From IMG/VR virus record IMGVR_UViG_2617270991_000004: a stretch of 19,512 bases of DNA, one strand, 5' to 3'. The notes below the pieces were generated by a model. It saw only the letters and a program-made list of their open reading frames with translations. It was not told where the DNA came from and did no database searches. Made by a program: the position numbers and the translations under genes. This DNA is from a virus. Lineage: Duplodnaviria > Heunggongvirae > Uroviricota > Caudoviricetes. Shown here piece by piece: positions 14,732 through 18,888 of the stretch (position 1 is its first letter; every line of letters starts with the position of its first letter).

Positions 14732-14744
14732 ACACTCCCCCGGG

Positions 14745-14866
14745 AACCAGAAAGGATCTGAAAATGGCGTTTTCTAACAAAAACAGCCTTTGTCAGATCC
14801 TTTTATATTTTTAAAATTCTATTGATAATCAATCAGTTAAAAAGAAGAAGAACGGATCTGATTTTT
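14745..14866 (-). promoter_or_regulatory. cosB: three terminase-binding R elements plus an IHF site
   Basis: Three copies of the core CAGATCC(K)TTYT: cores at 14754-14760 and 14854-14860 in one orientation, 14794-14800 inverted, mirroring lambda R1/R2/R3. Exact match to IHF consensus WATCAANNNNTTR at 14827-14839 between the second and third. Confidence 0.75.
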
Positions 14867-14900
14867 CCCTAAAAATTTTCATAAATAGCGAAAACCCGCG

Positions 14901-14912
14901 AGGTCGCCGCCC
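14901..14912 (-). other. cosN: 12-nt cohesive-end sequence (GGGCGGCGACCT on the minus strand)
   Basis: Plus-strand AGGTCGCCGCCC at 14901-14912 is the reverse complement of the lambda 12-nt cos overhang. The flanking sequence also closely matches the recalled lambda left and right ends. Confidence 0.9.
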
Positions 14913-15118
14913 CGTAACCGGTCGGATCGCCGGAAAGGACCCACGAAATGATAATGATTATCATCTATATAAGGTTTATCACAACATGTGTGTACGCCAT
15001 CAAACCACGAGAAATAATCAATTATGACGCAGGTATCGTATTAATTGATCTGCGTCAAATTAACGTAAAAGCAACTTCAGATAATACAAATCAGCAACAC
15101 TGAATATGGGGAAACATT

Positions 15119-15304
15119 ATGTCATCAAAGAACAGAACCCGCAGAACAACAACCCGCAACATCCGATTTCCAAACCAGATGATTGAACAAATTAACATCG
15201 CTCTTGATCTGAAAGGTTCAGGAAACTTTTCAGCGTGGGTTATTGAAGCCTGCAGAAGAAGGCTGTCAACAGAGAGTTCGGGTATGAATTACATAATTAA
15301 GTAA
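15119..15304 (+). CDS. Small YlcI/YnfO-like protein (DUF3950-type, possibly DNA-binding)
   Basis: 61-aa plus-strand ORF MSSKNRTRRTTTRNIRFPNQMIEQINIALDLKGSGNFSAWVIEACRRRL... with a GGGGA SD. Resembles from memory the small YlcI-type proteins found next to terminase genes in E. coli cryptic prophages. Opposite in orientation to the late genes. Confidence 0.6.
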   Translation: MSSKNRTRRTTTRNIRFPNQMIEQINIALDLKGSGNFSAWVIEACRRRLSTESSGMNYIIK

Positions 15305-15436
15305 CATGGTGTTCACAGAACACGCAGTTACCGGACACATCAGTTTTCCATTCGCTCCCCGGCAGTACAGGCTTCCCCTCTGACGGGATAGCCTGAAAAA
15401 ATAACACAGAAAATTATTTGTTATAATTAATATAAC

Positions 15437-15577
15437 TTACTCAAAAAAAAGCGACGAGAAAATCAGCATCAACGAACAATAAGCGCCAATACGTGATAAC
15501 AAATGGCAGCCATATTTATCTGCAGTATAAGCAATGGACAGGATAACCACACCAGAAACCGTCAGCATAAAATCCAT
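15437..15577 (-). CDS. Hypothetical 46-aa hydrophobic peptide
   Basis: Hand translation of the minus strand gives MDFMLTVSGVVILSIAYTADKYGCHLLSRIGAYCSLMLIFSSLFFE, preceded by GGGGAAG 5 nt upstream of the ATG. Below the ORF-track size cut-off. Lies in the AT-rich gap where lambda carries bor. Confidence 0.25.
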   Translation of the reverse strand: MDFMLTVSGVVILSIAYTADKYGCHLLSRIGAYCSLMLIFSSLFFE

Positions 15578-15927
15578 TTGAACTTCCCCGGACAAAATCG
15601 ACTCATCTAAAGATTTACAGCTCTTTTTATTATCAATATGTTAAAAGTAAAATAAACAGATGTTCAATAACACGAATACAAAAACGTGCTGAAATTCAAT
15701 GAATCCATTTCTGTGTCATCAATTAATAGTGATAAACATCCGGCTTCTTCCACCATCGCACCGGACAGGCGACTATGAGGGGACAACGCCGCGCTCCGTT
15801 AACGCGGTAAACCCCGGTGTGTATCGTTTTTGATTATCCCCGCACACTCGCGCAGAGGAGTCTCCCTGTCGGGCTGCGGTCTCTGTTAATGCGGGGATAC
15901 GGCGACAATACCGCGCATCAGCAAAAC

Positions 15928-16395
15928 TTATTTCAGGCACTGAGTGCGGATATAGTCCTGTGCCCCTTCCAGTTGCTTCTGCATCGTCATCAGCCGCTCT
16001 CTGAGGGTGAAATAATCCCGTGTAACGGTGTCTGCCAGTTGGGGGCCGGTTGCATTATCCACGCGGGCGGTGCCGGTGGCTTCACGCACGGGACCTGGAC
16101 AGGTGGCGTTGATCCGCAGGCTGCGGTGACCAGCGGCAACGTCAGCGCGAAGAGTTTCATTTTCAGCTCTCGCATCGGCTAATTCCCTCGAGTATCTGGC
16201 ATCAAGTGCAGCAACATCACGCTGGCGCTGCTGCATATCAGTAATGGTTGCATTTGCCAGCTCCAGCTCACTGACTTTTTTATCGCGCTGCTCTTTGTAG
16301 GTTATGGCGTTATCACGGTAATGATTCAGCCCCAGACTAAGCGCACCACAGGCCACCAGCAGGGCAATGATGACCACGCACAGTACGCGGTTCAT
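15928..16395 (-). CDS. Rz: Spanin inner-membrane subunit Rz (i-spanin)
   Basis: 155-aa ORF with N-terminal TM segment and NHYRDNAITYK.QRDK, DMQ.RQRDVAALDA.Y..ELADA.AEN, RDYFTLRERL.TMQKQLEG, matching recalled lambda Rz. Confidence 0.93.
   Translation of the reverse strand: MNRVLCVVIIALLVACGALSLGLNHYRDNAITYKEQRDKKVSELELANATITDMQQRQRDVAALDARYSRELADARAENETLRADVAAGHRSLRINATCPGPVREATGTARVDNATGPQLADTVTRDYFTLRERLMTMQKQLEGAQDYIRTQCLK
15990..16175 (-). CDS. Rz1: Spanin outer-membrane lipoprotein Rz1 (o-spanin), embedded in Rz in another frame
   Basis: 61-aa ORF wholly inside Rz. Signal peptide plus lipobox (LVTAAC), proline-rich, CVKPP.PPAWIMQP.P.WQTPL.GIISPSE matches recalled lambda Rz1. Confidence 0.9.
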   Translation of the reverse strand: MRELKMKLFALTLPLVTAACGSTPPVQVPCVKPPAPPAWIMQPAPNWQTPLHGIISPSESG

Positions 16396-16396
16396 T

Positions 16397-16495
16397 TCAC
16401 CACCAGCGTATCTGACCGATGAAATAACCGGAGGCCATAATCACAAACACCAGCCAGATAAGAATGAACTTCCAGGTGGATAATTTTTCAGCCAT
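16397..16495 (-). CDS. Hypothetical 32-aa single-TM peptide immediately upstream of Rz
   Basis: Hand translation gives MAEKLSTWKFILIWLVFVIMASGYFIGQIRWW with stop TGA 1 nt before the Rz ATG and GGGAGA 8 nt upstream of its ATG. The frame is open for 71 codons; an upstream GTG would give 57 aa. Confidence 0.3.
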   Translation of the reverse strand: MAEKLSTWKFILIWLVFVIMASGYFIGQIRWW

Positions 16496-16570
16496 CACTC
16501 GAATCTCCCGAATCAGTTTGCTAAAATCAAACACACTTTCTCCTTTGACTTTTCCAGAGTCAGGAAACAC

Positions 16571-16603
16571 AAAACCCCGCTTGCAGCCAACAAACGGGGT
16601 TTT
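16571..16603. terminator. Inverted repeat / hairpin between R and Rz (possible bidirectional terminator)
   Basis: Perfect 9-bp inverted repeat AAAACCCCG ... CGGGGTTTT with 15-nt spacer. T-rich on the 3' side in both orientations (TTTTTACTTTTATT on plus, UUUUGUGUUUCC on minus). Confidence 0.45.
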
Positions 16604-16693
16604 TACTTTTATTCACTTAGTTTTTGTCAGTTCGCAGGATTTCGTGTTATCCGTCCGTGTGAGCAAACCGCATTTTTCAGCAAAATATTCTGC

Positions 16694-17227
16694 TTATCTG
16701 TCAATTCCCCAGCACGCCAGCGCACTTTCCTGGTCGCGACGGGATACCTGACCGTAACAGTTGTTTGAGCGAATACGGCAGTCTCTGCCACCGTCCTTAA
16801 TCCACCAGCGAATCGCCTCACACGCTCCCCTGCGATCACCTGCATTAATTCGTTTATAAAACGTCGACGGAAAACACTTACCGGGGCCAATGTTGTACGG
16901 ACAGAATGACGCGATCCCCGCTTTCTGGGGTTCACTCAATGGCACTTTGATGTTTTTCTCCACCCATGCCAGCGCCTTATCACGCTCAATGGCGTTAACC
17001 CGGTCGCATTTTCCCTTCGACAGCTTCATACCAGGAATAACAGGCTTACCATCCACCCGGGTGGCTCCACGGCAGATGGTCCAGATCCCCGCACCATCAC
17101 GGTATGCCGTGGTGTGGTTACCTTCTTTTTCGTCAAGAAACTGGTCGAGGATTTCAGGCGCAGACGCCCCTGCACCAATCAGCGCCAGAACGGCAGCCGA
17201 CAGGCCGTATCGGATTTTTACGTTCAT
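16694..17227 (-). CDS. R: SAR endolysin (T4-lysozyme-like muramidase, GH24) with N-terminal signal-arrest-release domain
   Basis: 177-aa ORF. Gly/Ala-rich weakly hydrophobic N-terminus (YGLSAAVLALIGAGASAP), then lysozyme-like motifs (EGNHTTAYRDGAGIWTICRG...CYGQVSRRDQESALACWG). Resembles recalled phage 21 R and E. coli Qin-type prophage lysozyme. Confidence 0.9.
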   Translation of the reverse strand: MNVKIRYGLSAAVLALIGAGASAPEILDQFLDEKEGNHTTAYRDGAGIWTICRGATRVDGKPVIPGMKLSKGKCDRVNAIERDKALAWVEKNIKVPLSEPQKAGIASFCPYNIGPGKCFPSTFYKRINAGDRRGACEAIRWWIKDGGRDCRIRSNNCYGQVSRRDQESALACWGIDR

Positions 17228-17284
17228 GGATATTTATCAGGATTTATCGGTTCCGGCCCCCTGGATATGTTAAGTCTTCAGCCT

Positions 17285-17303
17285 GCCAGTGGTGGGCACT
17301 GGC
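17285..17303. promoter_or_regulatory. Palindrome GCCAGTG-N5-CACTGGC in the divergent region between R and the 104-aa gene
   Basis: Perfect 7-bp inverted repeat with 5-bp spacer, followed on the plus strand by GTTTTAT, about 50 bp upstream of the 104-aa ORF start. Could be an operator or a small terminator. Confidence 0.4.
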
Positions 17304-17355
17304 GTTTTATCTGCTGGCTGAAAATATATCTGACAATTCCAGTCGAGGATTAACC

Positions 17356-17670
17356 ATGCATAACCATCAACATAATTATGATTTATACCTGCAAGCCATA
17401 AATGAGCGGGTAAAATCGGAATGCCTTTTACTCCTCCCGCAAGAACACGAAGCAGTAAAGGCCATTCAGGCTGAACCGTATGGAGCTCTCACTACTGCAA
17501 CTCTCAGTATTATATCCGGAGCATTAACACCAACCTTGCTCCTTCGCCTGAAAGACAATATAGATGACTGGTTAAATGAAGAATTAAGTTACCTTGATTG
17601 CGAATGGGATAATCATTACGCCAAATCACAAAAAGATCGCCTGTTCAGACAATTATCAGGTAACAGATAA
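17356..17670 (+). CDS. Hypothetical 104-aa protein, convergent with the 330-aa gene (part of the S-R insertion)
   Basis: ATG at 17356 with a GAGGA SD 6 nt upstream; product MHNHQHNYDLYLQAINERVKSECLLLLPQEHEAVK...LSGNR. The track ORF 17104..17670 extends further 5' but that part is antisense to R. AT-rich; no family recognised. Confidence 0.6.
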   Translation: MHNHQHNYDLYLQAINERVKSECLLLLPQEHEAVKAIQAEPYGALTTATLSIISGALTPTLLLRLKDNIDDWLNEELSYLDCEWDNHYAKSQKDRLFRQLSGNR

Positions 17671-17676
17671 CAGTAC

Positions 17677-18669
17677 TTATATCCGCCCTTTGAGATAATT
17701 CAGCCCCGGCTGGAGCCAGCCATCAGGCTCTTTCTTAAAGGGCGGAGTATTGAAATCACGAAGAAGGACCTCCCGCACCGCAGTATCCCTGTCTGCACCA
17801 CTGGCAAGCGCTTCAATCTCAGCAGCTACCTGCAGATATCCCATGCAACGGCCAACGCGCTTCATCAGCCCCTGCTTTTTATTGTTCTTCAGGTAATCAA
17901 TGGCAAATTCAATGAGCTCCTCACTGTGCTGGTGCGATGGAGGTGTTACTTTCCCATTTTCTGAGATGGTTATTTTCCCACCATCACCGGATACAACAAA
18001 GGATGGCCGGTTACACTCCCATTCCAGCTCACTGAAATTATCATTATGAATACTGAAACACTCTGCGAGATTTCTGCTCATCACTTTCCGGCAATAATCG
18101 TAAAACGCCGCAAACTGCTGCTCATCGCGGCGTTTTTTTTCAGGCTGCTGAAAATGCTCTTTCAACAGTGAAGCGCAGTTCAGGCGCGCAGCTAATTCAA
18201 GAATAGTTTCTTTCATTTCATCTGCTGCAAGCACCTCATTTTTTGTTGGGGTGCTTTTTTTCAATTCAGTAACACAGCACTCCAGTTTTTCAATGCGTGA
18301 TTCAATATCATCTTTTTCTGACCGCAGTGTTGACGGCGGCATCTTCAGAGCATCAGTAATTCTTCCCGGTAGCTTTCCTTTGTAGGTTATCAACACATCC
18401 TGCGCCTCTAAAATTATGGGGCGCTTTTCTGGCAACGGTTCATCCCCTTCACATAACCCGGCAGCAATATCCATGAAAAACTGCTTCGCCTGCTTTTTCG
18501 CCTCAGCTTCGTAAAACTCCAGCGTGGCACCTTCAGTACGGTCAAGACTAATCGCCACATTTGGCAACAACAGTGGCGGATACCCACCAATTTCCAGTGC
18601 CACAGTAACAGCTATCTTATCCGGGTAATGATTTATCCCTTTTACAACCAGTTCATATTTTTTATTCAT
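17677..18669 (-). CDS. Hypothetical 330-aa protein inserted between holin and endolysin
   Basis: Long ORF whose ATG lies 3 nt after the holin stop (GAG TAG ACG ATG); the holin 3' end GGGGAGAG acts as SD. AT-rich relative to flanking phage genes. Predicted central coiled coil (DDIESRIEKLECCVTELKK...ILELAARL). No family recognised. Confidence 0.75.
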   Translation of the reverse strand: MNKKYELVVKGINHYPDKIAVTVALEIGGYPPLLLPNVAISLDRTEGATLEFYEAEAKKQAKQFFMDIAAGLCEGDEPLPEKRPIILEAQDVLITYKGKLPGRITDALKMPPSTLRSEKDDIESRIEKLECCVTELKKSTPTKNEVLAADEMKETILELAARLNCASLLKEHFQQPEKKRRDEQQFAAFYDYCRKVMSRNLAECFSIHNDNFSELEWECNRPSFVVSGDGGKITISENGKVTPPSHQHSEELIEFAIDYLKNNKKQGLMKRVGRCMGYLQVAAEIEALASGADRDTAVREVLLRDFNTPPFKKEPDGWLQPGLNYLKGRI

Positions 18670-18672
18670 CGT

Positions 18673-18888
18673 CTACTCTCCCCGAGCCGCCTTACGACGG
18701 TCCTCTCTGATTTTGAAATACAGGTTAGTCAGATATGTCAGCAGCCCAAACAGCAGACTCCCCAGCACGCCTATTGCCGCCCACTGAGACGGGGAAACCC
18801 TGTCCAGCAACTGCAGGAACCAGTAGCCCGTTCCCACCGCTGACGTGGTGTATGACACACCTGTTGTGATTTTTTCCATCTGGTACAT
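18673..18888 (-). CDS. S: Holin, phage 21 S-type pinholin with dual-start motif
   Basis: From ATG 18888 the product is [71 protein letters not shown] (71 aa), matching the recalled S21 C-terminus. M-Y-Q-M gives two starts 3 codons apart. The longer track ORF (to 18993) would run through a terminator hairpin. Confidence 0.9.

Follow-up and report, generated by a model that had tools for sequence, protein, structure and literature searches.

We analyzed a 19,512-nucleotide (nt) stretch of lambdoid prophage DNA (IMG/VR virus record IMGVR_UViG_2617270991_000004, Caudoviricetes), here called the window, in which 1,445 bp (positions 17228 to 18672) separate the holin and endolysin genes. This gap holds a 330-amino-acid (aa) open reading frame (ORF) on the minus strand, which carries the late operon, and a 104-aa gene on the plus strand. 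The explanation that we favor, with a confidence somewhat better than even, is that the gap consists of two separable units and not of one module: a late gene of the YdfR family, whose N-terminal domain would bind RNase E, and a moron-type cargo gene. Judged by its profile matches, the 330-aa protein is the intact long form of the YdfR/DUF1327 family, and both genes are members of families that are catalogued but uncharacterized. The points that are new here are the ancestral two-domain architecture of the large protein, an annotation artifact that affects it, and a portable leader that marks a slot in which cargo genes are swapped.

The region is 100% identical to that of Escherichia coli B1-56 (NZ_AP040249). 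Its upstream boundary is the gene for an S21-type (class II) pinholin of 71 aa (18673 to 18888, minus strand; Pfam Phage_holin_2_1, PF04971, E value of 2.6e-32), which has dual starts at Met1 and Met4, ends in a TAG stop at 18673 to 18675, and is named “class II holin family protein” in RefSeq. The downstream boundary is the gene for a 177-aa, R21-like endolysin of the signal-arrest-release (SAR) type (16694 to 17227, minus strand; Pfam Phage_lysozyme, E value of 5.6e-24), with a SAR-like N terminus and the RefSeq name “lysozyme.” The ATG of the 330-aa ORF (17677 to 18669, minus strand) lies 3 nt past the holin stop, and its Shine-Dalgarno (SD) sequence, GGGGAGAG, falls within the final holin codons. 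The convergent 104-aa gene (17356 to 17670, plus strand) is preceded by the SD sequence GAGGA (17345 to 17349), and 6 bp separate its stop from that of the 330-aa gene. The GC content was 45.1% for the whole gap and 40.3% for the small gene, compared to 54% for the holin and endolysin genes and 53.7% for the window; 20 of 362 segments of the same length were equally AT-rich. In these respects, the anatomy agrees with an earlier reading made from the letters alone (the sequence-only reading), which had described AT-richer DNA added within the lysis cassette, the two convergent ORFs, the SD sequence, the palindrome, and the stop spacing; only the start that it gave for the 104-aa ORF was 1 nt off. 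It had also placed the large gene for synthesis from the late transcript, which our analysis supports. Because of gene order, strand, and start coupling, we assign the large gene to the transcript of its neighbors. A Q-dependent late transcript would thus carry the holin, the 330-aa protein, the endolysin, and Rz, and the 330-aa protein would be translated right behind the pinholin.

Profile comparisons placed the large protein in a known family. Residues 1 to 100 matched Pfam DUF1327 (PF07041) with 136.6 bits against a cut-off of 25 (E value of 3.3e-40), and the match to phrog_1085 spanned that family over its full length (positions 1 to 296 of 296; E value of 5.4e-172). The protein is laid out as a DUF1327 N-domain of three strands and a helix (residues 1 to 100), a helical or coiled-coil middle (approximately residues 119 to 205), and a conserved C-domain (residues 223 to 330; 17680 to 18003). 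An AlphaFold2 model built from a 50-sequence alignment gave pLDDT values of 74 to 96 for the N-domain and of 75 to 90 for residues 220 to 290; these confident domains are connected by a low-confidence linker (residues 74 to 120) and long helices. The 104-aa protein matched phrog_1853 (E value of 1.7e-42). The sequence-only reading had recognized neither protein. The profile and structure searches that it had proposed gave no solved fold for either: sequence profiles found no match among the PDB chains for the 330-aa or the 104-aa protein, and a fold comparison matched neither to a solved fold. Similarly, NCBIfam, Pfam, and PADLOC held no match for the C-domain or the 104-aa protein, and PADLOC-DB 2.0 gave none for the 330-aa or the 104-aa protein at E values up to 1. 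Both genes are under purifying selection. The ratio of nonsynonymous to synonymous substitution rates (dN/dS) was about 0.2 to 0.3 for the C-domain and 0.24 to 0.66 for the N-domain.

In the identical region of NZ_AP040249 (ACZ44T_RS09940), the annotation by the Prokaryotic Genome Annotation Pipeline (PGAP) covers no more than the initial 112 codons of the 330-aa ORF, which are labeled a pseudogene (“YdfR family protein,” “missing C-terminus”). As the 330-aa ORF is intact, this call is an annotation artifact. In most sampled E. coli genomes, the DNA of the C-domain carries no annotation. The large gene also contains an A8 homopolymer (codons E-K-K; 18133 to 18140, minus strand), listed as a frameshift hot spot. 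Intact copies have the A8 tract; where it is A7 or A9, the gene is broken into ORFs of 182 or 194 aa and 134 aa, which reflects slippage at a hot spot or else an assembly error that recurs.

Relatives of the large protein are found at the same place in other prophages. In the Qin prophage of E. coli K-12, ydfR (103 aa) is located between essQ and rrrQ, and residues 1 to 74 of the large protein are 42% identical to YdfR. The small ORF that the sequence-only reading had placed at the Qin junction is therefore real: it is ydfR, a homologue of the N-domain of the large protein. In the window, K-12 Qin, Stx2 phage 86, PhiR5_1, and LF82, the family member belongs to the late operon and has a class II holin and a lysozyme as neighbors. 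The large gene is thus no insertion special to this phage: part of our query region was present in 2,918 of 5,426 complete E. coli genomes, and the family occupies this junction in about half of them. The database relatives form a length mosaic of 183 to 333 aa, composed of the N-domain, the coiled-coil middle, and the C-domain, and stand-alone forms that lack the N-domain measure 185 to 213 aa. An exhaustive search with residues 114 to 330 recovered relatives of 33 to 47% identity in which a DUF1327-like N-domain was also present, and a profile search identified these as Salmonella prophage proteins. The Salmonella homologues (27 to 46% identity) retain both the N- and the C-domain, and their gene sits in the late operon immediately upstream of the holin, whereas in E. 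coli it is downstream. Since the two-domain form is shared between the genera, it must be old, and the short YdfR is a reduced form. The sampled junctions with only an N-domain are deletion products, as indicated by the right half of the downstream hairpin that they retain. In several layouts, the large ORF reads into the antisense of a cargo gene, which gives the annotated “YdfR family” proteins alternative C termini.

The separability of the two genes was evident from the junctions themselves. We gathered 206 loci from IMG/VR with three queries (N-domain, C-domain, and small protein) and extracted every holin-to-endolysin junction, which yielded 106 distinct sequences in nine layouts. With N, M, and C standing for the N-domain, middle, and C-domain, the distinct junctions were distributed as N+M+C (27), M+C only (20), N+C+small (18), N only (15), C+small (10), N+M (9), N+C (4), N+M+C+small, which is the layout of the window (2), and M+C+small (1), proportions that are biased and indicative only, because the loci had been collected with these genes as queries. 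A large-gene start 7 to 8 nt past the last holin codon was kept in nearly all junction types. Of the 82 distinct junctions with a C-domain, 51 had no small gene. Among the 5,426 complete genomes, 787 carried the C-domain, at 970 places, and 97 carried the small gene, at 134 places. Moreover, one class of junctions devoid of the small gene retains TTATCTGTTGCC, the final four codons of the small gene, joined to the flank on the endolysin side; it follows that the small gene was lost there by deletion, with the large gene left intact. In the junctions of L127 and L046, an IS1 (InsA/InsB ORFs) has entered the slot that separates the large gene from the endolysin.

These observations bear on the proposal, made in the sequence-only reading, that the genes form a toxin/antitoxin-like or defense module. 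As a functional pair (toxin/antitoxin, effector/immunity, or defense/counterdefense), the small protein would neutralize or partner the C-domain. The pair is not confined to this genome, as it co-occurs in 31 distinct junctions, and in all 31 the C-domain is directly beside the small gene, with the stops 6 to 9 bp apart; the small gene and the 3′ end of the C-domain are at times inherited as one block (H4/H5), and both genes are selected for their protein sequence. Constant adjacency is, however, what linkage alone predicts, and linkage explains the co-occurrence equally well. Unlike a type II toxin-antitoxin operon, the two genes are convergent rather than co-directional, and the surplus of C-domain places in complete genomes and the deletion remnants, in which the large gene stays intact, show that they do not co-occur obligately. 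In some junctions, other cargo families replace the C-domain altogether. Neither protein has a recognizable toxin or antitoxin domain or fold by Pfam, PADLOC, or fold comparison, in line with the absence of matches to PDB sequences. Diversifying selection at the facing C-terminal ends was considered and rejected: these ends gave dN/dS values of 0.17 to 0.24, and all segments lay between 0.17 and 0.66. The large gene would be late and silent in the lysogen, so that there would be nothing to neutralize in that state, and the N-domain homologue YdfR is nontoxic when overexpressed (PMC13232886). We therefore regard a functional pair as quite improbable and retain the reading of two separable units.

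The second unit, the 104-aa gene, is listed in RefSeq as hypothetical protein WP_032188670.1. Full-length alleles, 66 to 99% identical, all have 104 codons, and dN/dS was 0.24 to 0.41 at a dS of about 0.5. Because length is kept and the ratio is low, we conclude that the small gene is a real protein-coding gene. It is optional at one site and has a GC content far from the 54% of its neighbors, and it is most likely moron-type cargo. According to our model, it would be an independent gene in a swap-prone slot, transcribed from the leader against the late operon; its moron-like features suggest that it is expressed on its own, probably in the lysogen.

Between the endolysin start and the small gene lies a conserved leader of approximately 80 to 85 nt (17236 to 17322, plus strand), which begins ATCAGG..CCTGGATATGTT. 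It holds a −10-like TATGTT (17266 to 17271), followed by TTCAGCC (17277 to 17283) and a hairpin, GCCAGTGGTGGGCACTGGC (17285 to 17303; palindrome GCCAGTG-GTGGG-CACTGGC, 7-bp stem); GGCTGAA (17316 to 17322) is able to pair with TTCAGCC around this hairpin. All junctions with any convergent ORF share the leader block beside the endolysin start, and directly past the hairpin the cargo sequences become unrelated. At least nine unrelated ORF families follow the leader in E. coli and Salmonella prophages, and in E. coli it was found at 643 places in 469 genomes. No gene was annotated under the leader in 29 of 30 sampled records; in the remaining one, there is an overlap with a YdfR gene. The cargo behind the leader includes, besides the 104-aa gene, ORFs of 86 aa (phrog_2572), 87 to 91 aa (phrog_18136), 105 aa (phrog_10490), 79 aa (phrog_21218), and 210 aa; the families other than the three compared by profile (see below) belong to different PHROG or Pfam families or have no match. 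These results support the holin-endolysin junction as a recurrent cargo site, as the sequence-only reading had suggested. We found no description in the literature of a shared structured leader before unrelated ORFs.

Individual leader copies were observed in several settings. At L265 (2501 to 2843), the leader precedes a 79-aa gene in LF82, and at L266 (2501 to 3232), from an O157 strain, an unannotated 210-aa ORF, whose antisense forms the C terminus of annotated “YdfR family” proteins of 263 and 305 aa. Two copies lie in tail-gene regions, before a 76-aa gene with its own clean terminator (L219, 6252 to 6600) and before an 89-aa DUF1883 gene that adjoins a putative holin (L267, 2501 to 2866). 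In Salmonella, the leader directly follows the large-gene homologue and is itself followed by an 86-aa convergent ORF (L212, 5139 to 5227), or it is cut off after GGGATGG past the large-gene homologue, with no cargo gene (L210, 4908 to 4935). For the 105-aa cargo protein of L162 (phrog_10490), PADLOC gave a weak hit, over part of the length, to PDC-S51, a candidate system (E value of 1.3e-5), and an extra 75-aa ORF made up of a DUF1327 domain only stands immediately before its gene. A common ancestry of the small convergent ORFs, for which a motif seen by eye (L-P-x-E-E..V-K-A-I) was the candidate evidence, was rejected: hhalign comparison of three families (the 104-aa gene, the PhiR5_1-type ORF, and the Salmonella 86-aa ORF) gave probabilities of 1% or less.

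The structure of the leader was then considered in terms of its two tiers. The two-tier fold in the window had a z score of −3.1. In the hairpin, 96.7% of cells were paired, with one compensatory change from C-G to U-A in Salmonella and a U.G intermediate in LF82; a shuffle control was not significant (126 of 500). GGCTG(A) was located 12 to 28 nt past the hairpin in seven of nine families. The outer stem TCAGCC/GGCTGA was individually significant only in families 1 and 4 of the seven tested, and the “compensated” variant in families 2 and 8 measures only 4 nt; the outer stem is thus suggestive. The functional strand could not be read from G.U variants of the hairpin, as four favor one strand and three the other. 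A general role of the hairpin as an intrinsic terminator was rejected because a T-run follows it only in the family 1 leader. Rfam gave nothing at gathering score in the window and no match at 17236 to 17322 at E values up to 1. We conclude that the leader is a conserved and probably structured element, serving as a 5′ untranslated region, an operator, or a recombination joint. Its −10-like TATGTT is conserved, and it may act as a promoter, but a consensus scan found none.

A possible function for the first unit comes from its short homologue. Residues 1 to 72 of K-12 YdfR bind Rne 1-597, the catalytic half of RNase E, in two-hybrid assays; Strep-YdfR copurifies Rne 1-598 and pulls down DNase-resistant nucleic acid, with RNA at RapZ-like levels (PMC13232886). 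Overexpression of YdfR caused few transcriptome changes and neither toxicity nor a growth defect (PMC13232886; a 2026 RNase E interactome study). Apart from this interactome paper, we found nothing in the literature on DUF1327, the lysis-cassette hotspot, or the hairpin sequence. Given the 42% identity to YdfR, the window protein most likely binds RNase E as well. Its N-domain would then engage the catalytic half of the host enzyme, and possibly RNA, at lysis time, and the protein would act on late RNA turnover and not on the cell envelope.

The position of the large gene could also point to lysis itself, with its product acting as a timing accessory, for instance a cytoplasmic regulator, on the triggering of the pinholin or the release of the SAR endolysin. 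The coupling of its start to the holin stop, seen in nearly all layouts, and the contact with the holin gene, downstream in E. coli and upstream in Salmonella, are compatible with such a role, and a screen cited in PMC13232886 tied ydfR to envelope integrity. The model, however, is made of soluble strand-helix domains plus a coiled coil, with neither a membrane segment nor a signal peptide; lysis cassettes that are otherwise intact often contain a truncated, split, or single-domain version of the gene; and no biochemical partner other than RNase E has been reported for the family. Lambda and phage 21, which are not known to carry such a gene, also lyse their hosts. On balance, a role in lysis timing appears unlikely.

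The leader and the large gene could instead be linked through RNA. As a phage RNA-control circuit, the DUF1327 late protein would recognize the RNA of the leader and bring the mRNA of the cargo gene to RNase E in a RapZ-like manner, with the hotspot cargo expressed in the lysogen and some of it perhaps serving defense or counterdefense; more generally, the protein may retune RNase E when lysis begins. We hold this to be rather improbable. The narrower proposal, that this hand-over of cargo mRNA, as with RapZ and GlmZ, ends the cargo expression of lysogeny, we judge very unlikely. The binding of YdfR to the catalytic half of RNase E and its RapZ-like RNA amounts (PMC13232886) are in agreement with it, as are the adjacency and convergence of the leader and a DUF1327-family gene in two genera despite the differing holin position, and the DUF1327-only ORF before another cargo gene at L162. 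Conversely, no DUF1327 neighbor was detected beside the tail-region leaders (L219 and L267), junctions with C-only large proteins still have the leader and the small gene, K-12 Qin has ydfR without the leader, and the single-base stem variants do not tell the functional strand.

A role for the transcript of the small ORF in place of its protein is highly improbable. Such a transcript would exert antisense or interference effects on the large gene or the endolysin and damp a leaky SAR endolysin in lysogens, in keeping with the orientation of the small gene against the late operon, with the lack of a terminator separating the two units, and with a leader that, in every E. coli copy, lies directly against the endolysin start. 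Transcription from the leader, however, would head away from the endolysin and would therefore be antisense only to the large gene. In addition, selection acts on the protein, its length is kept in alleles of 66% identity, and the gene behind the L219 leader copy has a terminator of its own and faces nothing on the other strand.

Several points weigh against our preferred explanation of two separable units, in addition to the sampling bias of the layouts. The adjacency of the small gene and the C-domain has no exception among the distinct junctions, and the arrangement of large gene, convergent cargo, and leader is kept in Salmonella on the other side of the holin; the two units may therefore be functionally linked after all. 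Since C-only forms fill the same translational slot, the N-domain is dispensable for whatever the C-domain does. RNase E binding is known only for the short homologue, and its overexpression changed the transcriptome little; a contaminant might also explain the copurified RNA, according to the authors (PMC13232886). As for the small gene, a consensus scan found no sigma-70 promoter upstream of it, and the independent transcription proposed in the sequence-only reading is in this respect unconfirmed; the −35 element is poor, and in this copy no terminator follows the gene.

Elsewhere in the cassette, Rz and Rz1 (15928 to 16395) lie past the endolysin. The 298-bp, 43%-GC gap that separates the endolysin from Rz contains an unannotated 32-aa ORF (16397 to 16495, minus strand) encoding a single hydrophobic helix (MAEKLSTWKFILIWLVFVIMASGYFIGQIRWW), which matched phrog_6632 (E value of 5.5e-20). 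Another AT-rich stretch (14732 to 15927; 41% GC) extends from Rz to the small terminase subunit and holds a YlcI/YnfO-family gene (15119 to 15304, plus strand) that opposes the late operon and looks like another moron; this stretch has no copy of the leader. A match to the rimP leader of Rfam at 16538 to 16627 (plus strand) was below threshold (29.9 bits versus a gathering score of 47; E value of 0.035) and is probably due to chance.

YdfR-family genes are present in prophage lysis cassettes in about half of the complete E. coli genomes, including those of Shiga-toxin phages. Little work has addressed how lambdoid phages control the decay of host RNA late in infection. With the shared leader as a marker, small cargo genes of prophages could be catalogued easily. 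Should the RNase E, two-domain, and leader readings all fail, the region would be an ordinary accessory late gene next to a moron.

Among known systems, RapZ resembles the large protein only in the way it works: YdfR binds Rne 1-597 and copurifies Rne 1-598 together with RapZ-like amounts of RNA (PMC13232886), whereas the window protein has no sequence or fold similarity to RapZ. The AbiF system of a Clostridioides difficile prophage likewise places an accessory gene with its own RNA element beside the holin; the proteins and the host are unrelated, and a defense role has been shown for the AbiF system only (PMC12373285). With type II toxin-antitoxin systems, the window shares two adjacent small-to-medium prophage genes, but these are convergent, naturally separable, and devoid of a toxin or antitoxin domain. 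A nearer likeness is to the lambdoid morons, such as lambda bor and lom, in the concept of Hendrix and colleagues. Like them, the 104-aa gene is optional, lower in GC, and present or absent at the same site, and it opposes the late operon as bor does; it differs in that its putative promoter is off consensus, that this copy lacks a terminator, and that its structured leader is common to at least eight other unrelated ORF families. For the large protein, the counterpart is K-12 YdfR, with a homologous N-domain (42% identity over residues 1 to 74) in the same slot between a class II holin and a lysozyme. YdfR, at 103 aa, consists of the N-domain and a short tail, whereas the 330-aa protein of the window continues into a coiled coil and the C-domain.

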